A stretch of 64,000 nt of DNA from an uncultured virus (IMG/VR IMGVR_UViG_3300028833_000129) (IMGVR_UViG_3300028833_000129); one strand, 5' to 3'. Positions 1 to 64,000 are shown, counted from the stretch's first letter. Program-made: numbers and translations. Notes: a model not told the origin generated them from the letters alone.

Positions 1-414
1 TATGATGAACATAGAAAAAAAATATCAGAAGCATTAAAAGGCGAAAATAACCCATTGTATGGAAAACACCACTCTGATGAAACAAGACAAAAATTGTCAG
101 AATCACATAAAGGTAAACACCACTCTGATGAAACTAGACAAAAAATGTCTGAAAACAATGCAAAATATTGGCTAGGTAAACACTTCTCTGATGAATATAG
201 ACAAAAATTGTCAGAATCACATAAAGGTGTTATACCAAAATCAAATCCTCCAAAAACCGTTTACCAATACACACTTGATGGTAAACTTGTTAAGATATGG
301 CCATCAACAAATGAATGTGAAAGGAATGGCTTTAACCAAGGGAACATTTCTAAGTGTTGCAGAGGCAAAAGAAAAACAAGTAATGGCTATAAGTGGAGTT
401 ATACCCCACTGTAG
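1..414 (+). CDS. NUMOD3/NUMOD1-containing homing endonuclease, C-terminal part (5' truncated by window edge)
   Basis: Frame open from base 1; repeats HHSDETRQKLSESHKG (NUMOD3); C-terminal VYQYTLDGKLVKIWPS...ISKCC.GKRKT..GYKW (NUMOD1); similar to the GIY-YIG protein at 36894-37526. Confidence 0.85.
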   Translation, partial: YDEHRKKISEALKGENNPLYGKHHSDETRQKLSESHKGKHHSDETRQKMSENNAKYWLGKHFSDEYRQKLSESHKGVIPKSNPPKTVYQYTLDGKLVKIWPSTNECERNGFNQGNISKCCRGKRKTSNGYKWSYTPL

Positions 415-423
415 CCAATGTCA

Positions 424-1755
424 TTAAAGTAATGAAACAGCCTCAGCAAGGTCATCATCCTCACCAAGGGACTTAACGTATACGCTAATGGTATCTATAC
501 TGTGACCTATAAGTGAGGCCAATGCGATAACGCTGCCGCCCTTTGCAAGGTACATCTGAGCGAATGAATGCCGGTAGCTATAATAAGATACATCGGTCGG
601 CGCAAGGGGTATATTATCATTTGTCTCAACATTTTTTTTAATGATATAGCTGTTAACCTCCTTTAACCAATCTCTGAATTTGTCAATATGGTTCGATGTG
701 AAGTTGTTCACCCTTTTTATTATTTTAACATTATCATTTGGACTTAAACCATCCAATACCGGTAATAGCCAAGTTCCTTTGTTAAGCATAAGCATCGGCA
801 ACATAAGCACCTGATTAAATTTATCATCAGCCTTTATTCTTATTTTAACATCAATGCCCGTTTTCTGACGTTTTAAATCCCAACAATAATACTTACTATC
901 TTTGATATATCTAACATCCATATCAGCCATTTTCAATTGCGCTAAATCGATAGGACTTAAGCCTTGAAACATTAGCCCCATAAACCAAAAATACCGGGCG
1001 AACAATGGCGACGATGTGCAGGTCAACGCCTCAAAAACCCCATCCCTATGATGCCACAAATCACCCTTGTCGACAATCAATTCATCCAAAAATAATTTCT
1101 TCATTATATCAATTGTCCGGTGATGTATAAAAATATTTCTTGATGATACCTTGTAATCCTTGCCATAGTTCCAACGCTTGAAGGGTGACTCCTTAATGAT
1201 GCCCTCCTCTGCTGCATACCGGCACAACGCTGCCAATTTGGATAACGTCATCTTAATGGTAGATTGCTTCATGCCGCTCCTCTCCAAATATTTGCCATAG
1301 CCCTTGATGATATCGACTGTTACCTCCTCTATGTTTTTAACGTCTGTATAGCCTTTAAAACTTTTCAGAAACGACTTCCATACCTTAACAGTACCCGGTG
1401 CAAGCGGTGCTGTATATCTCTCAATGAGAGTCTCTATATTGCCAATAGGGGCTACTTCTTTTCTTTGCAGTATCATTGCCGGCGTATACGCCTTACCCTC
1501 CACTTCATACTTGTTCCTTATATCAATAGCCTCTGATTTTAACCGGTGGATAAGCTCGTTAATGGTGGCATAGTTCTGATAACCTTTTCGAACACATTCC
1601 TTTTTGGAATCCCAATACTTAACTGTGCATGAGCATCCGGTAGATATTTCTTTTCGCCCATTAAACTGACAACGCAGCATAATAGGATGGCTACCATCAC
1701 TGAGAACTTTGTTTGTGCGCAACACTAACTTAATAATCGCAGAAGACGTTTTCAT
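424..1755 (-). CDS. int: Tyrosine recombinase / phage integrase (Bacteroidetes type)
   Basis: N-terminal arm-binding-like region (DGSHPIMLRCQFNGRKEISTG...WD), SAM-like middle region, C-terminal YSYRHSFA...LIGHS...VY. Confidence 0.9.
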   Translation of the reverse strand: MKTSSAIIKLVLRTNKVLSDGSHPIMLRCQFNGRKEISTGCSCTVKYWDSKKECVRKGYQNYATINELIHRLKSEAIDIRNKYEVEGKAYTPAMILQRKEVAPIGNIETLIERYTAPLAPGTVKVWKSFLKSFKGYTDVKNIEEVTVDIIKGYGKYLERSGMKQSTIKMTLSKLAALCRYAAEEGIIKESPFKRWNYGKDYKVSSRNIFIHHRTIDIMKKLFLDELIVDKGDLWHHRDGVFEALTCTSSPLFARYFWFMGLMFQGLSPIDLAQLKMADMDVRYIKDSKYYCWDLKRQKTGIDVKIRIKADDKFNQVLMLPMLMLNKGTWLLPVLDGLSPNDNVKIIKRVNNFTSNHIDKFRDWLKEVNSYIIKKNVETNDNIPLAPTDVSYYSYRHSFAQMYLAKGGSVIALASLIGHSIDTISVYVKSLGEDDDLAEAVSLL

Positions 1756-1820
1756 ACTCTTTTAATGTTAAATTAATAATATTTGGTGCACACTGTGGTG
1801 CACACTTAACTTTCAAGCTG

Positions 1821-1852
1821 CAAAGTTAGTGCACTTTTATCAAAAATGCAAA
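1821..1852 (-). promoter_or_regulatory. Bacteroidetes housekeeping-sigma promoter for integrase A
   Basis: Minus strand TTTG-N20-TAACTTTG matches the -33/-7 consensus. Confidence 0.7.
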
Positions 1853-1924
1853 TACGCTGATATAAAATAAGTTAATAAATTATTAATAATATATAAGTTT
1901 TTAGTTATTAAGTAACTTATAATT

Positions 1925-1955
1925 GCCCCGGACTGCGATAGTTAGGGGCTTTTTT
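1925..1955 (+). terminator. Intrinsic terminator-like hairpin inside the attP-like region
   Basis: GCCCCGGACT-GCGAT-AGTTAGGGGC (imperfect stem) followed by a T-run. Confidence 0.55.
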
Positions 1956-2089
1956 ATTATTTATTTTTTTGCAGTGCACTTTATGGTGCACATTTATAAT
2001 AAGTTACGGCAATTGACAAAAATCAAGAAATTGCACTTACTATGTACAAATTGATTTTTCCGGATATTTATTATAAAATAATAATAAGT

Positions 2090-2623
2090 ATGAATAGAGA
2101 ATTTTTTGAGACGAATGAGAGGGAAGGCTTCGAAAAACTAAAGGCACTTAATGATGCGGTTCATTTATTTCCGGAGGTTTATCAAACACCAAAGTTAACT
2201 GATTACGATGCTTCAGCGACAACCATAGCCAATAACGTTTATAACATTGAGATAAAGATACGACATCAGGTGCTATTGGAAGATATGAGAGTATCAGGCG
2301 TATCAAATGCAGGCAACTCATACATTGAGCCATCGATAATGATTGAGTCACATAAATTGGCAAGTAACCTGTTGCATGCACATTACTATAACACCACACC
2401 AATATATGTGAATTTCCTTGATGACGGTAACATTCTCATTTTTAACCTGCATAAATTAAGGTATTTACCGGAAAAAAATGTAAGGCGAACATACTCCAAG
2501 GGCTATCAAGGTAAAGAGAGAGAAATGAAGTTCTATCTGAATATGGCTGATGCTTGCATATTCGATAAAAATTATAACCTGATAAAAAGAGCCTCTGATG
2601 ACAAACCAACAAATAGCAGATAA
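2090..2623 (+). CDS. PD-(D/E)XK nuclease-like protein
   Basis: YDAS...NIEIKIR (D...ExK) motif; homolog at 50457; start moved to 2090 by comparison with the homolog. Confidence 0.5.
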   Translation: MNREFFETNEREGFEKLKALNDAVHLFPEVYQTPKLTDYDASATTIANNVYNIEIKIRHQVLLEDMRVSGVSNAGNSYIEPSIMIESHKLASNLLHAHYYNTTPIYVNFLDDGNILIFNLHKLRYLPEKNVRRTYSKGYQGKEREMKFYLNMADACIFDKNYNLIKRASDDKPTNSR

Positions 2624-3194
2624 CTTTTTAAAATGGGTAAACAATAACTATGAGCGTTTGCAGCTGCATCACCGGAAGTATTGTCTTAATACCAACCAAG
2701 AGTGGGATGATGACATATTTGCCAACACCTATTTAAAGATATACGATAAGATAGTTAAAGACGGCATAAACGATTGTTCAGAAAAAGGCTTTGAAAATTA
2801 TTTTTTTATTAGTTTTAAACAGAACTTAAGGAGGGAAAAACAATATTCAAGGAACGCCAAAAGGGACAGCAATGCTAACCTGCCTATGTTGCAAGAAGTA
2901 TATAAAAACTCACAACTTACCGAGCAGGAAAAACTAAAAAGTGATTTACTAAAAGATTATGCGACAATATACATACTGACCAAAGTGGAAGAGAATTTTT
3001 CTCCGGCTGATAATAGAATTTTTAAAATGAAATTATTTGACAAGTTAACCTATAAGCAACTCACTGAAAAGACCGGAGAAAAAGCAGTAAGACAACGGAT
3101 AGTTAATATCAAAAATTGGTTAAAAGAAAATGTGACCAAGGACGAAATAAATAAAGCCTTTAACGAAGACTATAGTAATCTAATAACGGACTAA
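2598..3194 (+). CDS. Phage sigma-70/ECF-like transcription factor
   Basis: Region-2-like DDIFANTYLKIYD...FENYFF and region-4-like HTH (RIFKMK...LTYKQLTEKTG...VRQRIVNIKNWLK); lies directly upstream of the late genes. Confidence 0.65.
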   Translation: MTNQQIADNFLKWVNNNYERLQLHHRKYCLNTNQEWDDDIFANTYLKIYDKIVKDGINDCSEKGFENYFFISFKQNLRREKQYSRNAKRDSNANLPMLQEVYKNSQLTEQEKLKSDLLKDYATIYILTKVEENFSPADNRIFKMKLFDKLTYKQLTEKTGEKAVRQRIVNIKNWLKENVTKDEINKAFNEDYSNLITD

Positions 3195-3934
3195 TGTTGG
3201 AGAAAAATAAAATTTATTGTTGTGATGTATTAGAAGGACTAAAAGAACTTGATGATGAAAGCGTTGATATTATAATCACATCGCCGCCTTATAATAAGGG
3301 CATAAACAAAGGTAAAAATAGCTCAAAGGCAAAGTGGGTTTCTACAATAGATTATAATGGCGACTCAGAAAATGATAATATGCCTGAAGATGAGTATGAG
3401 AAGTGGCAAATTGACGTTTTGAAAGAATGTTACCGGGTATTAAAAAAAGATGGTTCAATGTTTTACAACCACAAAAATAGAATATGGACCGGTCATGGAG
3501 AAATTATATCACCATATAAATGGCTGTATCAAGCACCATTTAAGATTAGACAGGAAATAATATGGGATAGAGGTTCGACAAATAACGTTGCAAGGTCGAG
3601 GTATTTGCCATGTACAGAACTCATTTTTTGGTTAACAAAGTCAAATAAGGTAAAATTTGACAGGAAGATTGATACACCAATGAAGAAGGAAGTATGGAGT
3701 TTTCCATTTGAAATAAATACCGAGCATCCGGCTCCATTCCCTGAAAAGTTACCTGATAATATTCTACATTGCATTGCCGGTGAATACGACTATAGACCAT
3801 TGGTGTTAGACCCATTTATGGGAAGTGGTACAGTAGCAGTATCAGCTATAAAACATAACTGTGACTATATAGGTTTTGAAAAATTCCCAATTTATGTGGA
3901 TATGGCTGAGAAAAGAATAAATAATTTTTTGTAA
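3194..3934 (+). CDS. DNA methyltransferase, N6/N4 beta class (SPPY, probably m4C)
   Basis: DIIITSPPY motif IV, HPAPFP, VLDPFMGSGT motif I. Confidence 0.9.
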   Translation: MLEKNKIYCCDVLEGLKELDDESVDIIITSPPYNKGINKGKNSSKAKWVSTIDYNGDSENDNMPEDEYEKWQIDVLKECYRVLKKDGSMFYNHKNRIWTGHGEIISPYKWLYQAPFKIRQEIIWDRGSTNNVARSRYLPCTELIFWLTKSNKVKFDRKIDTPMKKEVWSFPFEINTEHPAPFPEKLPDNILHCIAGEYDYRPLVLDPFMGSGTVAVSAIKHNCDYIGFEKFPIYVDMAEKRINNFL

Positions 3935-3939
3935 AAATA

Positions 3940-3948
3940 ATATGTTTA
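3940..3948 (+). promoter_or_regulatory. Putative phage late promoter motif ATATGTTTA (representative copy)
   Basis: Motif recurs upstream of structural genes at 7103, 16839, 18369, 19510, 21247, 24803, 26605, 34736(-), 34758, 37533, 41942, 51591, 54730 and 60226. Confidence 0.7.
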
Positions 3949-3958
3949 AATAAGAGAT

Positions 3959-4249
3959 ATGATAGCAACAGAAATACTTTTAATACCGGTATTGTTTTTG
4001 CTAATAACAGGTGTATGTTATTATTTAACAGAATATAATAAAATACCGGTGTGGTTAAGATATGAGCCATTCATATGCTACAAATGTCTATCAACTTGGT
4101 CATTGGCAGGCATAGGCATAATGTTCATATTACTTGATTTATTAATTACCGGTATTGCACTTATAATATTAGGCATACTCAATGGAGTGGCTAAATATAT
4201 TGACGAGAAAAATAACACAGTAAGTATAGAAGAATATGACAGAGGATGA
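3959..4249 (+). CDS. Small membrane protein with CxxCxxxW motif (DUF1360-like)
   Basis: Hydrophobic helices, PFICYKCLSTW; homolog at 51614. Confidence 0.6.
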   Translation: MIATEILLIPVLFLLITGVCYYLTEYNKIPVWLRYEPFICYKCLSTWSLAGIGIMFILLDLLITGIALIILGILNGVAKYIDEKNNTVSIEEYDRG

Positions 4250-4556
4250 TGTTAAAATTGTAGAGAAGTTTATTAGTATAAGAAATAGGGGTTTATATGC
4301 AGACGGTGGCCAAGTCACAGAAGTATATAATAGGGTACTTAACAAAAACGTTAGGCCGACTTCCTGTGGAAGCTGTATTAGGCAAAGGGTGAACGAATTG
4401 GAGGTAGCCCTAAACGCCTATAAAAGGCTTCAGGAGGCGTTAAAAAACAATGACCTTGATGATACCCCATCAGAGGAAAATAAAGCGATTGTAGATGCTA
4501 ACGCCGGTGAAAATAAGCCACCTGAGAAAAAGGTTGGCAGGTCAAAGAAGCAATAG
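4236..4556 (+). CDS. Hypothetical phage protein with CGSC motif
   Basis: VYNRVL...PTSCGSCIR conserved with the 51897 homolog. Confidence 0.7.
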   Translation: MTEDDVKIVEKFISIRNRGLYADGGQVTEVYNRVLNKNVRPTSCGSCIRQRVNELEVALNAYKRLQEALKNNDLDDTPSEENKAIVDANAGENKPPEKKVGRSKKQ

Positions 4557-4559
4557 GTT

Positions 4560-5036
4560 ATGAATTCATTAGTAAAAACACATATAGAGCAAAGTTCGCC
4601 AAAAAGAGGGAAAAGGCTCAGTCAAAAACAACTTGACGAATACGACCGGGTGCAACGTCTAATAGAGGAAATACAAGTTGACCTAGTGAATGGCGTAATG
4701 CGCTCAGAGATATTTAACAAGTTCAGGGAGAGAATGTATAATAATCTGTCAAAAAAAGATATTGGTGAAAGGCAGATACAGAATTACATCAAGGCAGCTT
4801 GGGAAGTGTTAAAAGAAGACAGGGTAGAAAGAGTGCAAGAACTTAGGGATTTACTGTTTTCTCAGTATATGTCTCAATATAACGAAGCTACTCGAATGGG
4901 AAACACAATGGTTGCAAAGTCAGTGCTTGACTCAATTGCAAAGATATTCTTACCGGATGAAAAGAATATAAACCTTAATGCAAAAGTGGATGGGGAAATA
5001 ACCATAGATTTTAACCTTATAGAGGATGAAAGTTAA
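4560..5036 (+). CDS. Probable terminase small subunit
   Basis: Helical 158-aa protein overlapping the TerL start; homolog at 52189. Confidence 0.55.
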   Translation: MNSLVKTHIEQSSPKRGKRLSQKQLDEYDRVQRLIEEIQVDLVNGVMRSEIFNKFRERMYNNLSKKDIGERQIQNYIKAAWEVLKEDRVERVQELRDLLFSQYMSQYNEATRMGNTMVAKSVLDSIAKIFLPDEKNINLNAKVDGEITIDFNLIEDES

Positions 5037-6288
5037 TGTAAAAGGTATAAAACTCACAGAAAGTCAAAGACTTATTTATAATGCGGCAAATGACAATGAG
5101 CATAGAATTGTTATGGCAAATCTGTCAAGACAGCAGGGCAAGACCACTGTTGTCATGCTGTTATGTATTAAATGGCTTTCACAGAAAAATGAGGATATTA
5201 TATACTTTACACCAACATTCACACTAGCAAAAAGAATATACAGCAAAATAATTAAAATGCTCCCATCGTCATTTGTAACAAAAGCAAATGCATCAGACCT
5301 AATCATAGAAAGTGTAAATGGTTCACAGTTAAGGTTTTGCAGTGGAGAAGCTGCGCAATCTGCAAGAGGTAGCAACTGTACAAAGTTGGTTATCGATGAG
5401 GCGGCATATATCAAGCAAGAGATAGATGGTCAGGATTTTTATTACAACATTGTTATGCCATTAACGAAAGTTCATTGCGATAAGATTGTAATGATTTCCA
5501 CCCCAAAGTCAACGTCAGGTTTTTTTTATGAGTTATGCATGCAGGCATTAAGCGGTGAAAGGAGCGATATGATATACATTAAACGCACAATATACGAAGA
5601 TGCACTCATCGACCCTGAAGAGATAGAAGAACTTAAAAAAGGCTATCCACCAATGGCTTGGAAGACAGAGTTCGAATGCGTCTTCATGGCAAATGCATTA
5701 TCAGTTTTCCCCAATTATGAGACATGCTTTGATATAAATTCATACTCCGGAGGAAAGTGTTGGTGTGGCATAGACCCATCCACATTGGGAGAAGATAACA
5801 CCATTGTTACATTCGTTAATACCGGCAATGAAGTTAAACAATATAAGATTGATGGGGAGTTGGATGTTAAATATCAAAAAATTTCAAAGCTTATTAATGA
5901 ATATAATCCGGTAGCAACGTACATTGAGAGCAATTCCATTGGTGAAGTGATGGCCAATGAAATAAAGAAGCAGTTAAAGAAAAAATCAAATTTTTACACA
6001 TTTGCCACAACTAATGATAGTAAAAAAGACTATATATCATTGTTGGCAGTGGATATAGCAAATAGCGCAATACACTTTGAAAAGGAAAACACCCTATTAT
6101 ACTCAGAGTTGGGAACGTTTTCATTTAGGCTTACAAAAACAGGGAAGATAACGTATGCAGCAATCGATGGAAAGCATGACGATACTATCACCTCTTTAGG
6201 GATAACACTGCAATGTAAAAATGATTTTAAATATGCCGGTGAAAATAATATATACATACAGAAAACAGGAAATTTATGGCTGAAATAA
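5026..6288 (+). CDS. terL: Terminase large subunit
   Basis: Walker A SRQQGKTT, Walker B VIDEAA, ISTP coupling motif, nuclease motifs GIDP and HDD. Confidence 0.95.
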   Translation: MKVNVKGIKLTESQRLIYNAANDNEHRIVMANLSRQQGKTTVVMLLCIKWLSQKNEDIIYFTPTFTLAKRIYSKIIKMLPSSFVTKANASDLIIESVNGSQLRFCSGEAAQSARGSNCTKLVIDEAAYIKQEIDGQDFYYNIVMPLTKVHCDKIVMISTPKSTSGFFYELCMQALSGERSDMIYIKRTIYEDALIDPEEIEELKKGYPPMAWKTEFECVFMANALSVFPNYETCFDINSYSGGKCWCGIDPSTLGEDNTIVTFVNTGNEVKQYKIDGELDVKYQKISKLINEYNPVATYIESNSIGEVMANEIKKQLKKKSNFYTFATTNDSKKDYISLLAVDIANSAIHFEKENTLLYSELGTFSFRLTKTGKITYAAIDGKHDDTITSLGITLQCKNDFKYAGENNIYIQKTGNLWLK

Positions 6289-6968
6289 ATGAAAAAGAAA
6301 TAATTGATTTGGGCAGTATACAAGTGCCTGAGAAATGGCAGGACGTTACCCTTCTTCAGTTTGAAAACATACAGAGATATTACGCTGACAAGGACAAAAA
6401 ATTTAATGTGTTCGATGTTATTGACATTTTTATAAATAAGGAGAAGGATTATGTGATGACGTTGCCGGCTGAATTTATAGAAATTATACTTCATAAGCTA
6501 TCATTTTTGTATGAGGAGTATGATGAAAAAGAACCGACAAATAAAATTGTCATCGATGGTGAGGATTATATTGTTAATGTACAGAATAAATTAAAAGCCG
6601 GTGAATTCATAGCAGCAGATACCCTATTAAAAAGTGATAAGTATAATTTGGCAGCACTGCTTGCCATCTTATGCAGGAAAAAAGATGAAGCGTATGATTC
6701 GAAGTTTGAGAATGAAATGGTAGAGGAGCGAATGAAGATGTTCGAAGAGCAGCCGGTGATTAATGTTTTACCAATATTAGGTTTTTTTTTGCAACTAGGG
6801 ATAATATCATCAGGTCCTACCCTATTATCTTTGAAGCTCGAAGAAGAAATAAACCGCACTGCCAACAGTATAGAGACTTTGCAGAAAAATGGGGAAATAT
6901 CAAAACATTGTATGAAATCGCTGACGAAAAAATTGAGAAAGTTGAAAAAATCTATTGCACATATCTGA
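6276..6968 (+). CDS. Probable tail assembly chaperone (gpG-like)
   Basis: T9 slippery run at 6782-6790 with an open, conserved -1 frame; homolog at 53927. Confidence 0.7.
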   Translation: MAEINEKEIIDLGSIQVPEKWQDVTLLQFENIQRYYADKDKKFNVFDVIDIFINKEKDYVMTLPAEFIEIILHKLSFLYEEYDEKEPTNKIVIDGEDYIVNVQNKLKAGEFIAADTLLKSDKYNLAALLAILCRKKDEAYDSKFENEMVEERMKMFEEQPVINVLPILGFFLQLGIISSGPTLLSLKLEEEINRTANSIETLQKNGEISKHCMKSLTKKLRKLKKSIAHI

Positions 6969-7072
6969 ATGATTACTTTCAGTTTCTTTCGTATTTGATT
7001 GAAAAGGCTGATGTGGATGAGGAAGAAGAAAAATTTAAAGACCAAATGAGAGAAGCTAAAAGACACCGGTAA
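6782..7072 (+). CDS. -1 frameshift extension of tail chaperone (gpGT-like C-terminus)
   Basis: FFFATRDNIIRSYPIIFEARRRNKPH...EKWG...YFQFLSYLIEKADVDEEEEKFKDQMREAKRHR*, conserved with 54418-54708; not in the ORF track. Confidence 0.8.
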   Translation, partial: FFFATRDNIIRSYPIIFEARRRNKPHCQQYRDFAEKWGNIKTLYEIADEKIEKVEKIYCTYLNDYFQFLSYLIEKADVDEEEEKFKDQMREAKRHR

Positions 7073-7091
7073 AATTAGCCGGTGTTTTTTT
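7059..7091 (+). terminator. Intrinsic terminator
   Basis: ACACCGGT-AAAATT-AGCCGGTGT followed by a T-run, at the end of the frameshifted ORF. Confidence 0.65.
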
Positions 7092-7131
7092 ATATATAAA
7101 TAATATGTTTAGTATATAATATATATAACAT

Positions 7132-7686
7132 ATGCTTACAGAAATAATTAATATCTTAAAGAACATAGCTCTCAGACATAAAGGCGTTAGAACATTTAGG
7201 TATCAAGGCGATGACCTTAACAACCAACAGGCAAATTATAAAGGTTTTCAAGTATTTGTCGACGACATATCGCTCCATCAGTTAAATATCACTACCAACG
7301 TATTTAAGACAGAGTTTCAAGTGTATATATTGTCCACACCTGAAAATACTCCTGAAGCCATTTTAAAAGCTCAAGATGACGCTTACACAATAGCGGTGGA
7401 TATATTGGCTTACATAGACTTAAAAAGCGAATACAGAGGCATTCTGAGCGTTTATGACTACAGTATAATAACATTGTCGCATTATACTGCAAACAGTAGC
7501 GCCGGTGTTAAGTTATCTTTGGTAATAGAGACACCAAATCCTGTTAACTTATGTGAGCTTGATGACAATTTTAATGATGAGCCTTATGAAGAAAAGGACG
7601 AAGAAATAACAATAAATGAAGAGGAGATTGGCGATATTACAATAAATCCAATTCACCTCCCACTAAATAACCCTTGCTGTAAATAA
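7132..7686 (+). CDS. Probable tail terminator/completion protein
   Basis: Size, position and acidic C-terminus; homolog at 54756. Confidence 0.45.
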   Translation: MLTEIINILKNIALRHKGVRTFRYQGDDLNNQQANYKGFQVFVDDISLHQLNITTNVFKTEFQVYILSTPENTPEAILKAQDDAYTIAVDILAYIDLKSEYRGILSVYDYSIITLSHYTANSSAGVKLSLVIETPNPVNLCELDDNFNDEPYEEKDEEITINEEEIGDITINPIHLPLNNPCCK

Positions 7687-8216
7687 TGGACTTAAAGTTA
7701 GCTCTTAATGAATTGGCTGAAGCTGTTAAAAGAATGATTAATGCCGGTATTGCAGAGTATGGTGTTAACAAAAGGGTGAAGCCACCAACTAATACCCTTG
7801 AAGGTAGTGAGCTGCAAAAGACAATGGAAGTAAATACCATAGAGAATGGTATAGCATTGCGCATAGCAGACTATTGGGGGTATATAGTAAAGGGGTGGAA
7901 TCGTACCCATAAAAGCCCTGAACGAGGGTTGTACCATGCCCTTGTACTATGGGCCATCAAAAAACATATAACATTGCCGGGCAAATCACAGTCAGTCAGC
8001 GCAGTGTTGGTAGCTGAAGAAGTGTGGAAGACAATGATTGTGTATGAACGACCAATACCTGCAAGACCATTTATGAATTATGATGAGGAAGGAGAAAAGA
8101 AAGGAGAGGCTGACATTACAAAAATGGTAATTGGCCTTGACACATATATAGACAAATGGTTCGATGACCTTTTTGAAAAAATAATGGAAAAAACAGATAA
8201 ATATTTTAATGGCTAA
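7686..8216 (+). CDS. Probable neck/tail completion protein
   Basis: IPARPF motif typical of tail-completion (HK97 gp10-like) proteins; homolog at 55280. Confidence 0.5.
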   Translation: MDLKLALNELAEAVKRMINAGIAEYGVNKRVKPPTNTLEGSELQKTMEVNTIENGIALRIADYWGYIVKGWNRTHKSPERGLYHALVLWAIKKHITLPGKSQSVSAVLVAEEVWKTMIVYERPIPARPFMNYDEEGEKKGEADITKMVIGLDTYIDKWFDDLFEKIMEKTDKYFNG

Positions 8217-9744: not shown

Positions 9745-9760
9745 ATTAAAAAATGTTAAA

Positions 9761-12718: not shown

Positions 12719-12724
12719 AAACAT

Positions 12725-48750: not shown

Positions 48751-48761
48751 TCTTTTAAAAA

Positions 48762-50105: not shown

Positions 50106-50110
50106 AATCC

Positions 50111-51584: not shown

Positions 51585-51613
51585 AAATAAATATGTTTAA
51601 ATAAAAATAGAAT

Positions 51614-52187: not shown

Positions 52188-52188
52188 A

Positions 52189-54708: not shown

Positions 54709-54755
54709 CGCCCCTTTTTTCGTACAATGATATGTTTATTAGAAAAATTATTGAC

Positions 54756-55283
54756 ATGTATTACAAAGATATAATAGAATCAATAGAAAACGTTATGAAA
54801 CGCTTCAAGGGCGTTAACTTTGTTAAATATACAGGTGAAGACCTTATCAACCAACAGCACAATGAAAACACGCTACAGTGCTATATTGATGATGTTACAA
54901 TGTCCCAATATAACCTAACAACAAACATCAATAAGATAGAGTTGCAAGTATATATATTGGGGTTTGCTGAAAACACGCCAGAAGCCATTTTAAACGTCCA
55001 AGACCAATGTTATAATGCAGCAGTTAACCTACTAGCCTATTACGATAATATGCCCGAATTTCAAGGCATTTTAAAACTGTATGATTGGAGTATTTTAACG
55101 CTGTCAAGATATACTTCCCAAGCCAATGCAGGCGTTAAGGTAAGTGTTATTTTAGACGTTGTGTCACCTATCAACCTCTGTGCAGTTGGCGATTGGTTCA
55201 ACGAAGACCCATACCCAGAGGAAAAGGACAAAGAAATAGACCTCCAAGAAATAACCCTTAAACCAACCCATATATGTAAATGA
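54756..55283 (+). CDS. Probable tail terminator/completion protein
   Basis: Homolog of 7132. Confidence 0.45.
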   Translation: MYYKDIIESIENVMKRFKGVNFVKYTGEDLINQQHNENTLQCYIDDVTMSQYNLTTNINKIELQVYILGFAENTPEAILNVQDQCYNAAVNLLAYYDNMPEFQGILKLYDWSILTLSRYTSQANAGVKVSVILDVVSPINLCAVGDWFNEDPYPEEKDKEIDLQEITLKPTHICK

Positions 55284-55816
55284 AGATTAGAGACGCTTTA
55301 ACAGAATTGGCAAATGAAGTCAAGAAGGAAATATTAAGAAGAATGGCTTCTGACATTGGCATTAACAAAAGGACAGGAACAAATACGTTGGTTGGTTCTG
55401 GACTTTATTATAGTGTTGATGTCTACCCAAGAAGCGACACAACGTTAATATTCCAAATCGCCAATTACTATCAATGGGTAGTAACAGGTTGGTACAGAAC
55501 AAAGAAAGGACCGGGCACATTCCAAGAATATCTTTTTTCAATAAGGGATTGGATAAGAAGAAAACATATAAGATGGCAGAAACATACAAAACATGGAATG
55601 GTTGACCTAACAGAAAATGAAATGATGTGGGCATTGGCAAAGGCAATGTTCAACCCAAAGAAGCCATATTCGATTGCCCCAAGACCATTCATCAATTATG
55701 ACCCAGAAGGTGACTTGGAAGTGATATTGCCATTTCTAGAAAAGTTTTTTGAAGATTGGGCTGATAACGTATTCGAAAAAATAATGGAAGAAACAGATAA
55801 ATTTTTTAATTCATGA
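55280..55816 (+). CDS. Probable neck/tail completion protein
   Basis: IAPRPF; homolog of 7686. Confidence 0.5.
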   Translation: MKIRDALTELANEVKKEILRRMASDIGINKRTGTNTLVGSGLYYSVDVYPRSDTTLIFQIANYYQWVVTGWYRTKKGPGTFQEYLFSIRDWIRRKHIRWQKHTKHGMVDLTENEMMWALAKAMFNPKKPYSIAPRPFINYDPEGDLEVILPFLEKFFEDWADNVFEKIMEETDKFFNS

Positions 55817-57243
55817 TAATATATACATTAAATGACTTCGTTAATAATGTCATTTGCCTTACAGGTGTTCCAAACATTATAAAAGTGGCTGACAACAGCC
55901 CTTCAACGTCTGCACATCGAAGTGTATTACGCTTTACAGTGCAAGACAGTGCTTCAATTGCATCTGCACCTGATGGGACGTATTACATCAGTGTACTAGG
56001 TGAAACCATCAGCAATGTCAGAAGTTATGAAAATGCCATTAATAAGAACTTCTATATTTCGTCAAATAATGTTTCAACAGCAGCCTCCATAGCTAGAGCA
56101 TTTAGAAATTGCTCCAACATAATTACGTTATACAATGTTGTACAAAATAGCAATGAAGTGTCATTGATAGCCAGAGACATATTTGAAACCAATACACAGT
56201 CTTCATATAGTAGTAATATCCCAATAGCAGCAATAACATTCATTGGTACTGATGGGCAAGATGTATCACCACTTTCAATGGCAAAGGTATCACTTGATTT
56301 GTATAGCGGCGATAATTATGTTACGACATTGGAAAAGACATGCCCAAAAGACACTGTATCGTTCAATATATCCCCTGCCCTTGAAACTATAGCAGAAGTA
56401 GGCCAAACGAAGCCTTGGAAGGCTATAATTGGCTATACAACGAACTATGGCCAATACAACAGCGTTGGAACAATGAATAACAATAGGGTTGCAGTTGGCT
56501 ACATGGTAAATCAAGGTGAAAACTATATAATGAACAGCAGCCCTATACTTGCACAAAACGTATCCAGAGGCAATGCATGGCAAGACAAGGGAAATCATAC
56601 CCTATTATACATCTATCAGCCAACATTGCCAATATCATTCTATCGTGGTTTAAACAGCGATGGCGATATTACAATAACATACCTTGATTCTGCCTTTAAT
56701 GACATTACAGGTGATACAATATCATATTCTTCTGGTGAAGACAAATTGGTTGATATGGAAGTTGTCTTGAATGAAAGCGTATGGAATGATACGTTTTATC
56801 TAGATGTAGAAATTGATGGCCTTGACCCTATCAGATATAATGTCATAAAGCCTTTGAAAATGACAGAATATTGCCAGCGTATATACTTTAGGAATAGTTA
56901 TGGCGGCACATCTTTTATTGATTTTACAGGCAAAAAGACAGAGACAAGAAGCGTTGAAACAGCAACATATAACAAGAACTTATATGACTATTACACCAAC
57001 AATGTAATAAGCAAGGAAAAGCCATATAATAAAGAAGTTAAATATGATGTTACATTGAAAAGCCACATATTTGAAGAGGATGGCAAATATATCTACAATG
57101 ACCTGGCAAGAAGCCCTTATATTTGGACAACAGTTAATAACAAGACGTATGAAGTTATCCTTGATAGTGTAAGCGTTGATGAAGTGGATAATTCCAATAA
57201 CCTGTATGAAGGTACTCTAAAATATCATTATTCAAATATCTAG
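55813..57243 (+). CDS. Minor tail protein (distal tail-like)
   Basis: Homolog of 8209. Confidence 0.55.
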   Translation: MIIYTLNDFVNNVICLTGVPNIIKVADNSPSTSAHRSVLRFTVQDSASIASAPDGTYYISVLGETISNVRSYENAINKNFYISSNNVSTAASIARAFRNCSNIITLYNVVQNSNEVSLIARDIFETNTQSSYSSNIPIAAITFIGTDGQDVSPLSMAKVSLDLYSGDNYVTTLEKTCPKDTVSFNISPALETIAEVGQTKPWKAIIGYTTNYGQYNSVGTMNNNRVAVGYMVNQGENYIMNSSPILAQNVSRGNAWQDKGNHTLLYIYQPTLPISFYRGLNSDGDITITYLDSAFNDITGDTISYSSGEDKLVDMEVVLNESVWNDTFYLDVEIDGLDPIRYNVIKPLKMTEYCQRIYFRNSYGGTSFIDFTGKKTETRSVETATYNKNLYDYYTNNVISKEKPYNKEVKYDVTLKSHIFEEDGKYIYNDLARSPYIWTTVNNKTYEVILDSVSVDEVDNSNNLYEGTLKYHYSNI

Positions 57244-57247
57244 CAAA

Positions 57248-60178
57248 ATGGTTTATAAAAATCACCTATTAACAATATATGTAAATAATCAATTGTTGAC
57301 GTTGGAAAGTGAAGACGTTAATTTAAGGCTGAATGCAACAGTGTTCAACCCAATTGATATTTCATCTACCCAAAGTGAATACAGTTTCAGTTTTGAAGTT
57401 CCTGCAATAGCAGAGAATAACAAGATATTCCAATATGCAAATTGTCTGGATAAACCTTCAAAGTTTCATAACAGGTATGATGCAAAAGTATATGCTGATG
57501 AACAGTTGATATTTGAAGGCACGTTAATCATCAATTCATATAAAGACAATAAATATAACTGCAATTTGGTGGCAGTGAAAACTTATTCACTTGACGAAAT
57601 ATTTGGTGAAGATACATTAAACGAAATTCCTTGGTATAAGCCTTTTAATGGAATATCGTCTATTAATGCATATAACGCCTCTGGAGACACAGAAATTGCT
57701 TTCCCCTTAATATCCTATGGTGTCTTCCAAAAAACGCCTTATTTCAGTGATACGGTGGCAAATGATTATACTTCAAAGTTTCAATTAGACGAATATAATA
57801 AATGGTGGGTAGAATCTTTCTTTCCGTCATTAAATATGCTCCAGACTGTTAAAAAGGCATTCGAATGGAAGGGATATACTGTTGGCGGCGATGCTTTCAA
57901 TGATGAAATATTGAAGAATGTTTATATGTCCTGCAACCTATCATCTGAACAACAGCCATTGTATAATCTAGGCAATGAAAGAATGGGCAAGGTGTCATTA
58001 ACGACACGTTTCTATAGCAATACAGAAGGATATGAACAAGAACTGAAATTTCCATATTTCCATGTTAAGAATGGAAGGGCAGGATTTGGCAGTTCAACTA
58101 GTGTTAACACCAATACAAAGACATACGAAGATTGGAACTTCAAGACAGTTCAAATTTATGACTTGCTACGTTCTGGAACAACGATTGTCAACCAACCAAC
58201 ATATATGTTTGATGATAATGAAAAATGCATTGTAATACCTGCTGATGGTTGGTATAAGATTGATTTACGTGCAACATGCACACTTGAATCAGGCGAAATT
58301 ACAGCAGTCCAAAATGTCATAACTGATGGTGGCGCTGGTGATGATATTGAAGAAAAGGAACTGACAATGCAACGAAACCTTTATGAAACATGCCCAGTGG
58401 AAATTCAGTTGGTAAGAAACTATAATGATAATTTGGAGTTAATAAAGGGAAAGTGGAACACTGAATATTCTAATGGCAACCCAACTGAAACGATGTATAG
58501 AATAGGCACTAGGTATTACAACAACATCAACCAATGGCAAACATGTTTCCCCCATGATGACCCCTATAATACAGGTCTTCCAACAAAACTTGATGGTATT
58601 TCTTTGATGCATTCTAGAGGCAGCAGTTTTGGAGGGCAAAAGGCAGGTGAAGGAACAATAAACACAATTGGTGGCAGCAGAAGTGGCAAAGGTGGTGATT
58701 TTGGCAAGAATAGAAGAGGTGGTGGCACTAACACAACACCCAGAAACTATTCCTATGGTGATTATGGGTATGTATATGTTGACAATGAAATAATGGCTTA
58801 TGACCCCGTTGTTAACAGCGACTTCATTTGTGGTGTTTCAAGCATGGGAATCAATGGCAGAAGTGGTTGCAAGGCTGTTATTAAGAATGGCTATAGTTGG
58901 ACTAGAAGTTTCAGTGAAGAAACAAATGCTTTCTATGATAACAATGGCTACCTTCACTTAACAAAGGGTACTGGTAACACTGTAAACGAAGAGCAGACAA
59001 CATATAATTCCAACACCTATGGAGCACCTGCAACAACAATCATTTCAAATGCCAATACACTGTCAGCAAGATTTAGTTGCATGGTCTATCTGTATAAGAA
59101 TGATGTATTAGAGTTATTCCAAGTCAATAGGGGCTATAATAACGCTGCTGGTAACGTTGTAACGTACCCAATTGATACAACTGTTGACCTTGATATAACA
59201 GCGATGTCAGAGAGGTCTTATAATGCCCTTCGTTCTGATGATTTTAACTATTCATCAACGACAGAATTTGATGTTGATTTAAGGCTGTCTAATTTCCTAA
59301 ACGATGAAACGACAATAGCAAGTTTCATACAAAACGTGATGGATGCATACAACCTTGAAATAAAACAATATGGCAAGACAATAACGATTGATACCAAGAA
59401 AATAGCAACCACTAACAACCCGCCAATTATTAATCTAGATAATAGGGTTAATTCTAATGATGCTGAATCAGAACTTATTGAATATCCTAGTACTTTGGCA
59501 GTGCAATATAAGATAGACACTGATGAATGGGGGTTTGAACAATCAGCACCACCAGACACTGATTTTAGCACTGATGATTGGAAGAAATATGGTGATAGTG
59601 GCTTTACTAAGATTATATTAAACGATGATAATTATAACATAGATGATGAAGTAAAGAATATCAACTTTTCATATACTTGGTACGATGATTTTAAGTGGAT
59701 TGAAGTAGACAGTGCTAATACAGCAGACAGTGGCACTGTTGAAACATTGTCAATTCCTGTAATATCCAAGTTTGAATACATGATTGATGGCTACAATTAC
59801 GATGAAGCAATGCAGCATGACGGATATAGTTTAACACAGCGTTTTTGGTTTAAGCCAACAAAGACAAATGCATTCGTTTGGACTGATAGTTACCCATTCG
59901 AAAAGGTTGATATATATACAACATCAAACGTGCTAAACAACGTTAATTTGTCGTACAAGAATACAGAGCAGAGCATATTGACGAACTATTTCAACTATTA
60001 TGCAGATTTGTCTTCAAACTATGTAAATATTGATGTGTATATCACTCCAGACGAATATAAATTATTAAAAAATGGGGCAAACGTGAAATTTGATGATGAT
60101 GTATATATACCTGTAGAAATGATTGGTTATGACCCAACAGGAAACAACAAAACATCATTGAAGTTAATGAAGCACTAA
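57248..60178 (+). CDS. Large minor tail / baseplate hub protein
   Basis: Homolog of 9761. Confidence 0.6.
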   Translation: MVYKNHLLTIYVNNQLLTLESEDVNLRLNATVFNPIDISSTQSEYSFSFEVPAIAENNKIFQYANCLDKPSKFHNRYDAKVYADEQLIFEGTLIINSYKDNKYNCNLVAVKTYSLDEIFGEDTLNEIPWYKPFNGISSINAYNASGDTEIAFPLISYGVFQKTPYFSDTVANDYTSKFQLDEYNKWWVESFFPSLNMLQTVKKAFEWKGYTVGGDAFNDEILKNVYMSCNLSSEQQPLYNLGNERMGKVSLTTRFYSNTEGYEQELKFPYFHVKNGRAGFGSSTSVNTNTKTYEDWNFKTVQIYDLLRSGTTIVNQPTYMFDDNEKCIVIPADGWYKIDLRATCTLESGEITAVQNVITDGGAGDDIEEKELTMQRNLYETCPVEIQLVRNYNDNLELIKGKWNTEYSNGNPTETMYRIGTRYYNNINQWQTCFPHDDPYNTGLPTKLDGISLMHSRGSSFGGQKAGEGTINTIGGSRSGKGGDFGKNRRGGGTNTTPRNYSYGDYGYVYVDNEIMAYDPVVNSDFICGVSSMGINGRSGCKAVIKNGYSWTRSFSEETNAFYDNNGYLHLTKGTGNTVNEEQTTYNSNTYGAPATTIISNANTLSARFSCMVYLYKNDVLELFQVNRGYNNAAGNVVTYPIDTTVDLDITAMSERSYNALRSDDFNYSSTTEFDVDLRLSNFLNDETTIASFIQNVMDAYNLEIKQYGKTITIDTKKIATTNNPPIINLDNRVNSNDAESELIEYPSTLAVQYKIDTDEWGFEQSAPPDTDFSTDDWKKYGDSGFTKIILNDDNYNIDDEVKNINFSYTWYDDFKWIEVDSANTADSGTVETLSIPVISKFEYMIDGYNYDEAMQHDGYSLTQRFWFKPTKTNAFVWTDSYPFEKVDIYTTSNVLNNVNLSYKNTEQSILTNYFNYYADLSSNYVNIDVYITPDEYKLLKNGANVKFDDDVYIPVEMIGYDPTGNNKTSLKLMKH

Positions 60179-60251
60179 CAATCTATAGCAAACAATCTTT
60201 GATTGTTTTCGTTCTTTCAGAATAGTATGTTTATACTAAAATATTGAAGAA

Positions 60252-60542
60252 ATGGAAAAAGAAACTTGGAAAAACATAAGCATAAGGGAAAAACTACAAC
60301 TTATCAATGGAACTGGATTGATTGTTGCAGCCATTACCCTTTACTTTTTATCATTTATCATAACATTATCAATAGGATTTGACATTATTTCAGCTGGTGC
60401 AACATTACTTGCAACAGGTTTGGCGCTATTTGGTATTACCGGATTTGTAAAAAACTCTATGATGCAGTTTGAAACCAAGATTGAAAAGAAATTAAGACGT
60501 TTTGAAGACATTGAAGAAGACAGAAAATATGGACAGAACTAA
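60252..60542 (+). CDS. Holin (phage B native copy)
   Basis: 2 TM helices; homolog of 16867. Confidence 0.7.
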   Translation: MEKETWKNISIREKLQLINGTGLIVAAITLYFLSFIITLSIGFDIISAGATLLATGLALFGITGFVKNSMMQFETKIEKKLRRFEDIEEDRKYGQN

Positions 60543-61029
60543 ATGGTTAATATTTGCCGTTATTTTTGCATTGATTGGAGCACATGTATATAATATACTA
60601 GGCAAAAAGGCAGAAGTAATTGAAATAGAAAAGACAGATACCATCGTTGTTAATGATACAATAAAACAGAGAGATACCATAACAATTACCAAAACAAAAC
60701 AGGTATATAGAGAAATTGTTAAGACGGACACAGTATTTAACGAAAAAGGTGATACAATTCAGCTAGTTACAGAAAATAAGTTATATAAAGACACTTTATG
60801 CAGTCAAAACGATTCTATCATACTGGAGAGCAGTATTACAGGTATAAATCCAAGGTTAGATTGGATAAAAGCAGATTGGCGAAAGCAGGAAATTATAAAA
60901 ACTGTAACGATAACAAACTATGTAAAACCAAATAAAATAAAAATAACTCCACAATTGGGCATTGGTTATGGATTATTTAATAAAAAAATTGATGCTTATG
61001 CAGGTGTTGGAATCAGTATTAATTTGTAA
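60529..61029 (+). CDS. Spanin-like lysis protein (copy 2)
   Basis: Identical translation to 17144. Confidence 0.55.
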   Translation: MDRTKWLIFAVIFALIGAHVYNILGKKAEVIEIEKTDTIVVNDTIKQRDTITITKTKQVYREIVKTDTVFNEKGDTIQLVTENKLYKDTLCSQNDSIILESSITGINPRLDWIKADWRKQEIIKTVTITNYVKPNKIKITPQLGIGYGLFNKKIDAYAGVGISINL

Positions 61030-61157
61030 GAATCCCTATGATAATCAATATAAAGCACCTTATGGTTATGGCTTTTTTTATAATGGTCAGTTCCAAGGCA
61101 CAATTATATGGAGGGATAACGTTGAAGGCTACGAACTTAAAAAACTACAAGATTAAT

Positions 61158-61661
61158 ATGGCAGATTATAAGAAATTAGTACCAATAATACTAGAGTTTG
61201 AAGGTGGATATGCAGGCAATATTGATGGCATGATATGCACAATGAAAGGTGTGACATTGGCAACATACAAACAATATTATGGCAAATTAAAGACTTGCAA
61301 AGATTTAAAGAATATCACCAATGAAGAATGGGAAACAATATTTAAGTTGGGATATTGGAATAGATGGTGTGCAGACCAAATAAACAATCAAGCCATTGCC
61401 AATTTGCTAGTCGATTGGACTTGGGGCAGCGGAATATATGGCATTAAATACCCACAAGCAATATTGGGCGTTAAAGTTGATGGAAAAGTAGGCCCAAAGA
61501 CATTGGCAGCAATAAATAACCATCATGACCAAAAGAAATTATTTCAACAGTTGTGGGAGAGAAGAAAAAAACACTTTGAAGACATTGCAAGGAGAGATAA
61601 GTCAAAGGCAAAGTTCTTGAAAGGTTGGCTTCGAAGATTAGATGCTTTCAAGTTTGAATAA
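61158..61661 (+). CDS. GH108 endolysin (copy 2)
   Basis: Identical translation to 17773. Confidence 0.85.
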   Translation: MADYKKLVPIILEFEGGYAGNIDGMICTMKGVTLATYKQYYGKLKTCKDLKNITNEEWETIFKLGYWNRWCADQINNQAIANLLVDWTWGSGIYGIKYPQAILGVKVDGKVGPKTLAAINNHHDQKKLFQQLWERRKKHFEDIARRDKSKAKFLKGWLRRLDAFKFE

Positions 61662-61782
61662 GATATAGTAGCACCGTTTACAGTTAGGAATTTCGTATTA
61701 ATGGGCTGATGGGAGTTAGGGGCGATAGCTAACTCCCACTTTTTTTGTCTAGGATATGTTTATTCTAAAATACTTTGTGAAT

Positions 61783-62877
61783 ATGGCAAAAAAGCGTAAA
61801 AGATATTTAGTAACGGCAGACAAATCAGAAGCCTTTGCATGCAGTTTGGTTACTTCTCCAGCGATGGAAGAGACTTTTGTTGTTTTCAACGAAGATACAC
61901 CAATAGTTGAAAAGTTTGCTGATGATAAGAAACACATGATAACAGGTGTTGTTGCTATCCCAAACAAACCTATCTACAGAAGGAACAAAGAAACTGGAGA
62001 AGAATATGATATTGTTTTTTCAGCAGAAGCAATTGAAAAAATGTCGATGGACTTTTTAAAGAACTACAAGCAGCATGAAGTGACGTTGCAACATCAAGAA
62101 AATGCTGATGGCGTTTATCTGGTTGAACAGTGGATAAAAAATGATTTGGTATATGACAAATCACTTTCAATGGGACTGTCAAAAGAGTTGCCTGTTGGTA
62201 GTTGGTTCCAGACATATTATGTGGATTCAAACGATGTTTGGAAACGTATTGAAAGCGGTGAATTACTAGGATTTAGTTTGGAATGTGCACTGTCAATGGA
62301 AGAATTTAATAAAATTGAAAATAATGATAACGATATGGATTTAGTAGACAACATGAATTTTTGGAAGAAAATGAAGGAAACACTGAAAGAAGTGTTTGCA
62401 AAAGGTGATGTTGATGTAGAAGGAAGCGAAGCAGTAAAGATTACACCAACAAAACAAGAATTGGCTGAAATGTCTGGTTTTACAAGCGTTGAAGACTATG
62501 AAAAAGAGGTTGAAGCCATTAAGGCAGAATTTGAAGAGGCAACACCAACTGTTGAAACGCCTGTAGAGCCTATAGAAACGCCTGTAGAGGCTCCAAAAGT
62601 GGAAGACCCTACAACTACCCCACCTGCAAAGGAAGAAACGCCTACAGAGGCAGAAAACAAGCCTGACGAACCAAAGGACAACCACCTTGAAGACTTAATT
62701 AAGAACTTAAAAGAAGAAATCGAAGCATTGAAGGGCTTAAACAAAGACCTAAACAAGAAAGTTAAGACCCTAGAAAAAGAACCATCTGTTAATCCAATTA
62801 ATACGAATGGCGGTGGCAAGAAAGGTGGTGACAATTTTGACAATTGGCGTGAAACGATGAAAAACTATCTACAATAG
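61783..62877 (+). CDS. Prohead protease/scaffold (copy 2)
   Basis: Identical translation to 18398. Confidence 0.75.
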   Translation: MAKKRKRYLVTADKSEAFACSLVTSPAMEETFVVFNEDTPIVEKFADDKKHMITGVVAIPNKPIYRRNKETGEEYDIVFSAEAIEKMSMDFLKNYKQHEVTLQHQENADGVYLVEQWIKNDLVYDKSLSMGLSKELPVGSWFQTYYVDSNDVWKRIESGELLGFSLECALSMEEFNKIENNDNDMDLVDNMNFWKKMKETLKEVFAKGDVDVEGSEAVKITPTKQELAEMSGFTSVEDYEKEVEAIKAEFEEATPTVETPVEPIETPVEAPKVEDPTTTPPAKEETPTEAENKPDEPKDNHLEDLIKNLKEEIEALKGLNKDLNKKVKTLEKEPSVNPINTNGGGKKGGDNFDNWRETMKNYLQ

Positions 62878-62966
62878 TTTCTGCAAAAACTGAAATATGT
62901 TTAAAATAAACAACATACGAAGAGTATGCAAAAATGATAAAATAATAGATTAAAATAAATAAAATT

Positions 62967-63917
62967 ATGGCTAATTTCATAGATGTTAGTGGATTAACTT
63001 ATTGTGGCAAAGAGTATCAGAATATTTTTGCTAGAGATATGTACACTTTAGACCTTCGTAATTATGGTATTACGTTGATGGATGGTGTAAAGGGTAAAAT
63101 GAAACTTTATACTGGAGAGATTGGTGATGTATGGCAGGCTTATTCATGTCCGTTTACACCCCAAGGTGCTGCATCATTGGCAGAAAGTTTTATAGAGCCG
63201 GTTGCAATTAAATCAAACCTTGAAAACTGCTACGATACCTTCTGGAATACATTCTTAGTAGAACAGACTTCAATCAGTCTTAATGGCGGCATTCCCCAGA
63301 CATTTGCAGCATGGTTCTTTGACAAGTATCGTCAGAAGATGGCACGTGAATACGAAGAGATTTTCTGGCAGGGTGACACCGCTAGAACTGCAACAACCAA
63401 GGCTTATTTAAAGGTCACTGATGGTGTTGAAAAGCAGTTGTCAGGTAATTCAGCTGTTACAAGCGTTGCATTAACTGCTTTCACTGTTGACAATATACTT
63501 GCCCAAGTCGAAACTGTTATTTCAAGCGGTCTTTCTGTTGCAAACGCTGCAGAAGTTGACACTGGTAAATATAAGGTTCTTATGAACAAGGCTGACGTTG
63601 ACCTCTTAAAGATGGCACTTGGTAAGGTTTGTTGCCCAAACAACAATAGCATTTTCTCCAACTATGCAAAGGGTGCTGATGGTGGTGTTATCATACTTGG
63701 TTATGAAGTTATCCCAACCATGCAGAGCAGAAACACCATAATCTTTGGAGACCCAAGGAACTTGGTATTAGGTTTTGATACCTTCGATTCACACTTATCT
63801 TGGAAGTTAATTGACCTTCGTGATACGACTGGGGATAACATGTTTAGAATCATAGCAATTTCCAATATTGCTGTTGGTGTTGTATTCCCTGAAGGAATGG
63901 TTTATGCAAGCGTATAA
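62967..63917 (+). CDS. Major capsid protein (copy 2)
   Basis: Identical translation to 19582. Confidence 0.75.
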   Translation: MANFIDVSGLTYCGKEYQNIFARDMYTLDLRNYGITLMDGVKGKMKLYTGEIGDVWQAYSCPFTPQGAASLAESFIEPVAIKSNLENCYDTFWNTFLVEQTSISLNGGIPQTFAAWFFDKYRQKMAREYEEIFWQGDTARTATTKAYLKVTDGVEKQLSGNSAVTSVALTAFTVDNILAQVETVISSGLSVANAAEVDTGKYKVLMNKADVDLLKMALGKVCCPNNNSIFSNYAKGADGGVIILGYEVIPTMQSRNTIIFGDPRNLVLGFDTFDSHLSWKLIDLRDTTGDNMFRIIAISNIAVGVVFPEGMVYASV

Positions 63918-64000
63918 CAATTCGTTATCATATATATTTCCTTTGGTTATCTGATGGGGGATAACAATAGGGTTATCCCCACTTAAAAAGAAAAATAAAA

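Follow-up and report, generated by a model that had tools for sequence, protein, structure and literature searches.

Different sets of short words are missing from two related gut phages that share one metagenomic contig, a pattern probably shaped by restriction-site avoidance

How can two parts of a single viral contig each lack, without exception, a tetranucleotide that is common in the other? The question is raised by IMG/VR record IMGVR_UViG_3300028833_000129, a 64,000-nucleotide stretch of DNA from an uncultured virus (the window, with positions counted from its first letter), in which an earlier note had described avoidance of CCAG/CTGG giving way to avoidance of TGAG/CTCA at one junction. 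The window begins with segment A (1-16989), continues with one 43,385-bp turn of a unit B (16990-60374) and ends with the first 3,626 bases of B again, such that 16990-20615 and 60375-64000 are exact copies at an offset of 43,385. The GC content is similar along the whole window (0.30-0.38). A is collinear with B at 49.9-60.4 kb. Where the two match, 64-69% of the nucleotides are identical, and 12 gene pairs have amino-acid identities of 30-57%, so that the earlier description of A and B as sister phages holds. Both are tailed-phage genomes by gene content, and the encoded proteins include a large terminase, a portal, an XkdF-type protease, a GH108 endolysin, a BspA-type leucine-rich-repeat array, homing endonucleases and an integrase-like protein. 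B is also known from a separate IMG/VR record of 43,512 bp with direct terminal repeats; window positions 42746-63924 match the locus taken from that record (L001) with 100% identity over 21,179 bases, straight through the point homologous to the junction. The runs that contain this DNA are animal-gut metagenomes. A and B are related but distinct tailed phages, both uncultivated and both from an animal-gut community.

To quantify the missing words, all 4-mers were counted exactly and compared with zero-order, first-order and maximal-order Markov expectations. The absences that had been seen by eye were confirmed, and further purged words were found. In A, CCAG/CTGG occurs 0 times against 64, 80 and 92 expected under the three models, respectively; all 77 CCAG and 84 CTGG of the window are found past 16989, CTGG from 17009 onwards. 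CACG/CGTG is also absent from A (0 versus 33-64 expected, with 60 in B), as are GATC (0 versus 56, 44 and 33) and CGCG (0 versus 10-18). In B, TGAG/CTCA occurs 0 times against 282, 280 and 112 expected, and none of the window's 81 TGAG and 46 CTCA falls beyond 16989, the final copies being at 16785 (TGAG) and 16449 (CTCA). TGCG/CGCA is reduced to a single site in B (111-153 expected under the Markov models, with 54 in A), GATC to two (141, 100 and 96 expected) and CGAG/CTCG to five (27-153 expected). CGCG is missing from B (9-41 expected) and from the entire window. The rarity of GATC had been noticed before; the site at 27344, then thought to be the only one, is joined by a second at 36028.

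Less complete depletion affects other words as well. A retains 14 CATG, 10 CTAG, 9 CCGA and 10 CGAG, and B retains 8 CCCG, 10 CCGG and 35 AGCT (about 114-141 expected), along with the 5-mers CTAAG/CTTAG (6 versus 62), GACTC (2 versus 30) and GGACC (2 versus 27). Two words are in surplus: TGCA in B (341 versus 270) and CCGG in A, where the 67 copies, already described as common, are 4.3-fold above an expectation of 16 (16-28 across nulls) and compare with 12 in the remaining 47 kb. For the purged words, a word and its reverse complement are both gone, in genes on either strand and in coding and intergenic DNA alike. The repeat at 16990-20615 has 0 TGAG/CTCA, 0 TGCG/CGCA, 13 CCAG/CTGG and 4 CACG/CGTG, and these counts make it B-type, as had been proposed; it is merely the beginning of a second lap on B's circle. 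Each phage avoids several words, palindromic and asymmetric, rather than one reciprocal pair. The claim that the two phages were purged of different motifs thus stands, since their sets differ, while its restriction to non-palindromic motifs falls with the purging of GATC and CGCG. We tried to unite the asymmetric words of A and B under a degenerate palindrome or other degenerate motif, and none could be established. YGMG fits TGAG (0), TGCG (1), CGAG (5) and CGCG (0) in B, but CGGG is low there too and CGAG, CGCG and CGGG are also low in A. For A, CRYG fails as CATG is only partly reduced (14 versus 75), and CYRG fails as CCGG is enriched.

Coding constraint was addressed with a synonymous-codon shuffle in which the protein and the codon usage of each of 58 open reading frames (ORFs) were kept (100 replicates). 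For A the shuffle predicts 64.5 CCAG (minimum 51), 20.8 CACG, 28.7 GATC and 9.2 CGCG, and for B it predicts 124.2 TGAG (minimum 103), 102.2 TGCG, 77.1 GATC (minimum 65) and 126.6 AGCT. In 20 first-order Markov simulations each for A and B, no 4-mer fell to 10% of its expectation or below. The purged words are therefore far below what composition, neighbouring bases and coding constraint predict, and the depletions are not explained by composition, codon usage or protein sequence.

If the words were removed by selection, they should disappear while the proteins stay as they are. We asked what became of TGAG/CTCA words of four relatives (L014, L002, L007 and L013) where they fall in codons that encode the same amino acids in B. 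Such words number 20, 32, 27 and 29 in the four genomes, which are not mutually independent, and 0 of the 108 are kept in B, whereas 35-40% of all 4-nt words at such codons persist there unchanged. TGAG/CTCA has been lost without protein change. When A is compared with B, the words are seen to escape by one synonymous change each, for example TGAG to TGAA and CCAG to CCGG, a comparison that is weak by itself with proteins only 30-57% identical. The excess of CCGG in A and that of TGCA in B fit such escapes. The CCGG surplus of the CCAG-poor genomes, which are A and its relative L021/G003, would follow from CCAG/CTGG to CCGG escapes; the excess in A and in G003 (109 copies) is probably a by-product of such changes where CCGG is unrestricted.

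Is this behaviour peculiar to A and B? Large terminase (TerL) searches returned 20 IMG/VR records besides B itself and two contigs in bins of metagenome-assembled genomes (MAGs), 22 relatives in all. Purges of this kind are present in 22 of 22, and the sets of words vary from record to record. GATC is at 0 in 21, the exception being a 4.1-kb fragment, and CACG/CGTG is at 0 in 13. Subsets of relatives are at or near 0 for GGCC, for CCGG, for AGCT (L016 and L021), for CATG (L028, 0 versus 109) and for CTAG and CGTA (L017); CAGG/CCTG is down to about 5% of its expected number in roughly a dozen, and many are nearly free of CCCG. The TGAG/CTCA purge recurs in none of the 22, nor does the purge of TGCG on both strands, and CCAG is low only in L021 (11 versus 114), the record nearest to A (81% TerL identity). 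Among the other contigs of these scans, unrelated ones of high GC have 0-1 purged words, and a few phage-like ones are purged of palindromes alone or of palindromes and CCCC. The avoided sets thus vary among A, B and the 22 relatives, a variation that may be linked to their hosts.

Two relatives add detail to this picture. In G002 (loci L017, L022 and L052+L053; 32,175 bases), the terminase-sense strand carries 0 TGCG and 64 CGCA, and the pattern also holds in the few ORFs on the opposite strand, where there are just 2-3 sites. The purge follows the DNA strand, which supports a pressure acting on DNA. In G003 (L057-L059), a complete relative of 45,866 bp, the 39 CCAG/CTGG are clustered in three regions (0.7-7 kb, 20-21 kb and 28-37 kb in reversed record coordinates) with none elsewhere, which suggests recently imported modules in which purging is incomplete. 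Strand-asymmetric purges were also seen in L016 (GGTC 1 versus 38 expected; GACC 34 versus 51) and in L029 (TTAGA 0 versus 28; TCTAA 14 versus 21). L029 (44.4 kb) and L030 (46.0 kb) are the two whole-phage-sized family contigs found in MAG bins, which are labelled Lachnospiraceae and Methanobrevibacter; the labels likely reflect mis-binning and are not evidence of a host. No cultured relative was found: tblastn with TerL against a phage collection gave at most 26% identity (Aeromonas, Pelagibacter and other phages), too distant to hint at a host, and megablast with 23 kb of B against the same collection gave no match. A literature search on the phage family, and on purged tetranucleotides in phages of the rumen or of Prevotella, turned up nothing specific.

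Taken together, we read the window as restriction-site avoidance in two phages that were joined by an assembly chimera, and we give this reading a probability of roughly three in four. We hypothesize that nucleases of the host lineage recognise short words and would cut unmethylated incoming phage DNA, so that phage lineages losing all copies would escape, with selection acting on mostly synonymous point mutations. A would in this way have been cleared of CCAG, CACG, GATC and CGCG, and B of TGAG, TGCG, GATC, CGCG and most of CGAG, CCCG and AGCT, with GATC and CGCG purged in both phages. Since the asymmetric words differ between A and B, the two phages would face different enzyme sets, presumably those of different hosts in one community, and the differing sets of the relatives are what host-specific nuclease pressure predicts. 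The selecting agents would be host restriction-modification (R-M) systems or similar nucleases, and the purged words may accordingly predict host methylomes. The hosts themselves are probably Bacteroidota, the phylum of the nearest cellular Atlas clusters of the integrase. Prevotella intermedia has a documented GATC system of the MboI type (PMC5608340), and the part of a rumen-phage paper that lists host R-M genes gives no site counts (PMC5723332). The contig would then pass from low-abundance A into the about five-fold more abundant B through a short shared stretch in a small conserved gene, lap B's circular map once and re-enter it.

Could the purges have arisen without host restriction? Phages might avoid the targets of their own nucleases, such as those that degrade host DNA, and B does carry one GIY-YIG/NUMOD and two HNH endonuclease genes, with a NUMOD fragment in A. 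These genes match homing-endonuclease families, however, whose targets are long, and no restriction-endonuclease family was detected; each phage would need 4-6 different short-site nucleases of its own, and the other purged sets of the relatives include GATC, GGCC and CCGG, typical targets of host Type II enzymes. We therefore consider this explanation very unlikely. Even less probable, in our estimate, is avoidance at the RNA level, by which the phages would escape sequence-specific endoribonucleases that cleave mRNA in the host. Most genes lie on one strand, and mRNA interferase targets are short and asymmetric, like the purged words, yet in A and B each word and its reverse complement are both absent from genes of both orientations and from intergenic DNA, and the one-orientation TGCG purge of G002 (0 versus 64) follows the DNA strand even in opposite-strand ORFs, at the 2-3 sites there. 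The slightest chance goes to a neutral cause or artefact, be it a bias in mutation, deamination driven by methylation, the usage of codons or amino acids, or a systematic error of sequencing at modified motifs. A and B are both generally poor in words that contain CpG, as such a cause might produce, but dozens to hundreds of sites are expected under the Markov nulls and the nulls that preserve codons, and sister genomes of like composition show opposite patterns. The synonymous nature of the escapes argues against mutation bias and deamination; they include A-to-G changes (CCAG to CCGG) and not C-to-T, and CTAG, a deamination product of CCAG, is itself low in A. That replacements respect synonymy in intact reading frames also argues against sequencing error, and the same B sequence is found in a separate record.

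The junction itself calls for a separate explanation. Around it, A and B are identical at 16876-16925, differ at 16926-16989 and are identical from 16990 on, and the word switch is bounded by the last TGAG at 16785 and the first CTGG at 17009. Depths were taken from contigs of run X1, the probable source, and not from raw reads. In this run, the A contig (Logan) has a depth of 11.6 and ends at 16905, a 296-bp node with B-type letters (16876-17171) has a depth of 75.2, and the next B contig (17142-21793) has a depth of 57.7, with the graph broken at 17142-17171. A depth step at the junction thus coincides with a nearby graph branch. The extra depth of the node looks like what A would contribute, and the break at 17142-17171 like the exit of A's own path. 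In addition, the match to A-like contigs of two independent runs, X4 and X5 (90-97% alike), breaks off at 16893 with no continuation into B, and B exists without the junction, in its own record. For these reasons, the depth step, the graph break, the stops in X4 and X5 and the separate existence of B, the contig most likely crosses from A to B by an assembly path switch and not at a biological boundary inside one phage. The position given earlier for the switch is upheld, within 16785-17009.

Alternatively, the junction may be real, either as a natural recombinant or as a tandem molecule made of A's left part and B; the purges would still be restriction avoidance. Mosaicism does occur in the family, as the three CCAG/CTGG-bearing regions of the otherwise CCAG/CTGG-free G003 illustrate, the window's own assembler did link A-type letters up to 16989 with the shared sequence, and a minority fused form is compatible with the contig depths. 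We nevertheless hold a real junction to be unlikely. Depth drops from 75.2 to 57.7 at the graph break, as if an A path of about 12-17x left there, and the A-like contigs of two independent runs do not pass into B. One molecule of more than 64 kb would be required, compared with 43.5 and 45.9 kb for the related complete records, and the hybrid would carry 127 TGAG, 54 TGCG, 148 CCAG and 60 CACG (each counted with its reverse complement), hence would be exposed in either host.

Several observations weigh against restriction-site avoidance joined by an assembly chimera. A's own continuation was not recovered, as no relatives turned up in metagenomes scanned with its 985-aa protein or with the C-terminal part of its 1362-aa protein. 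The exact 43-nt A-type pattern at 16926-16968 has no match in viral contigs, and the window letters at these positions are in none of the listed X1 contigs. The chimera call leans on the contig depths and breaks of one run, possibly the source, and if A really shares 16990-17171 with B, then A has one CTGG, at 17009. On the side of restriction, we know of no characterised enzyme for the bare 4-mers CCAG, CACG, TGAG and TGCG. Neither a host genome nor a CRISPR link nor an integrated copy came to light; a genome collection with one genome each of 185,579 species contained no integrated relative, only phage-sized contigs in MAG bins and distant terminases. Finally, a survey found that near-complete elimination is uncommon in temperate phages and mostly concerns orthodox Type II sites (PMC6286503), and A and B both have integrase-like genes.

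How do these purges compare with known cases? GATC, GGCC, CCGG, AGCT, CATG, CTAG and CGCG are classical Type II targets, and Staphylococcus phage K is reportedly free of GATC, a classical case of avoidance. Restriction-site avoidance as surveyed in phages (Rusinov et al. 2018, PMC6286503) resembles the present case in that short words fall far below expectation, Type II palindromes among them (GATC and CGCG here; GGCC, CCGG, AGCT and CATG in relatives). In such avoidance the eliminated sets depend on host lineage, as those of A and B may do. A and B differ in that 4-6 words per genome are fully or nearly cleared at once, in that half of the cleared words are asymmetric 4-mers (CCAG, CACG, TGAG and TGCG), and in that both genomes have integrase-like genes, while near-total elimination in that survey was found mainly for non-temperate phages and orthodox Type II enzymes (PMC6286503). 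The A and B purges are an extreme and somewhat atypical case of restriction avoidance, a principle long known.

The strand bias of G002 has its own parallel. Type III enzymes such as EcoP15I need two inversely oriented sites, and phage T7 evades EcoP15I by having its sites in one orientation, much as G002 has 64 CGCA and 0 TGCG on one strand. The word in G002 is 4 bp, however, compared with 5-6 bp for known Type III sites, and phage B is cleared of TGCG in both orientations. As for the joint, chimeric metagenome contigs of related strains that occur together likewise connect a low-depth genome to a relative of high depth by way of a short identical stretch, and then run more than one lap of a circle; here the word signature is enough by itself to narrow the breakpoint down to 16785-17009.

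We speculate, and hold it to be doubtful at present, that the purged words are imprints of uncharacterised host nucleases specific for bare asymmetric tetranucleotides (CCAG, CACG, TGAG and TGCG; CAGG, CGTA, CCCG and GGTC in relatives), of which at least one, judging from TGCG in G002 (0 versus 64), would act only on inversely oriented pairs. If this were true, animal-gut Bacteroidota would possess a diverse and fast-changing arsenal of 4-bp asymmetric cutters, which could be read from uncultivated phage genomes and would allow phages and hosts to be paired through methylome data.

Table 1. Positions of the parts of the window, remaining sites and genes referred to in the text.
Feature	Position	Strand	Remarks
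Segment A	1..16989	.	Right-hand part of phage A: homing-endonuclease fragment, integrase, N6_N4 methyltransferase, large terminase, large structural genes
Unit B	16990..60374	.	Single complete 43,385-bp turn of phage B
Start of second pass round B	60375..64000	.	Exact copy of 16990-20615
GATC sites remaining in B	27344..27347 and 36028	.	Exact count
Sole TGCG remaining in B	44777..44780	+	Exact count
A/B-identical 50-bp stretch	16876..16925	.	Directly before the last A-type letters, 16926-16989
Small gene spanning the A to B passage	16867..17157	+	96 aa, weak DUF6019 match; B homologue at 60252-60542
Integrase-like gene of A	424..1755	-	Arm-DNA-bind_5 and Phage_int_SAM_5 domains, typical of Bacteroidota
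Integrase-like gene of B	48762..50105	-	Nearest cellular Atlas clusters are Bacteroidota
DNA methyltransferase of A	3194..3934	+	PF01555 N6_N4_Mtase, motif SPPY
Large terminase of A	5026..6288	+	Annotated gene
Large terminase of B	52746..53927	+	Query for fetching relatives
Homing-endonuclease-like genes (GIY-YIG/NUMOD and HNH)	1-414, 36894-37526, 41325-41879, 46437-46976		

The remaining features of the two genomes are listed in Table 1. The integrase-like genes have matches to PHROG 1 and to two Pfam domains of the N-terminus, with none to the catalytic domain PF00589 at E<=0.001. The methyltransferase gene of A has no counterpart in B or in any of the 51 other loci compared; its SPPY motif presumably indicates N4-cytosine specificity. 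We considered this enzyme as the reason for the tolerance of CCGG in A and rejected it, as the gene is found in A only, yet L021/G003 is CCGG-rich too, and no link to any tolerated word was found. Over 129 nt, the homing-endonuclease copy at the left end of A shares 79% identity with the B gene at 36894-37526, on the opposite strand; neither copy contains any of the diagnostic words, and the pair is uninformative. A conserved protein of 198/201 aa (2598-3194 in A and 50979-51584 in B, 55% identity) has a weak ECF sigma-70 match under the family cut-off. The array of BspA-type leucine-rich-repeat paralogues extends over 21257-29710, and contigs of all four runs have many joints and loose ends at 22.0-23.9 kb, a region that is hypervariable or repeat-confused. 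A 93-nt tRNA-Gly(tcc) called by ARAGORN at 58118-58210 (-) lies inside an opposite-strand 976-aa ORF (57248-60178) and is probably spurious.

A and B amount to an unusually clean natural experiment, in which sister genomes of like composition with opposite, all-or-nothing losses make selection by sequence-specific defences visible without knowledge of the hosts. Word-purge profiles can also locate chimeric or mosaic joints in viral contigs to about 200 bases. The same profiles are testable predictions of the defence specificities, and hence of the methylation motifs, in the hosts, and the asymmetric 4-mers, together with the orientation-specific case of G002, suggest enzyme specificities to seek in gut and rumen Bacteroidota.

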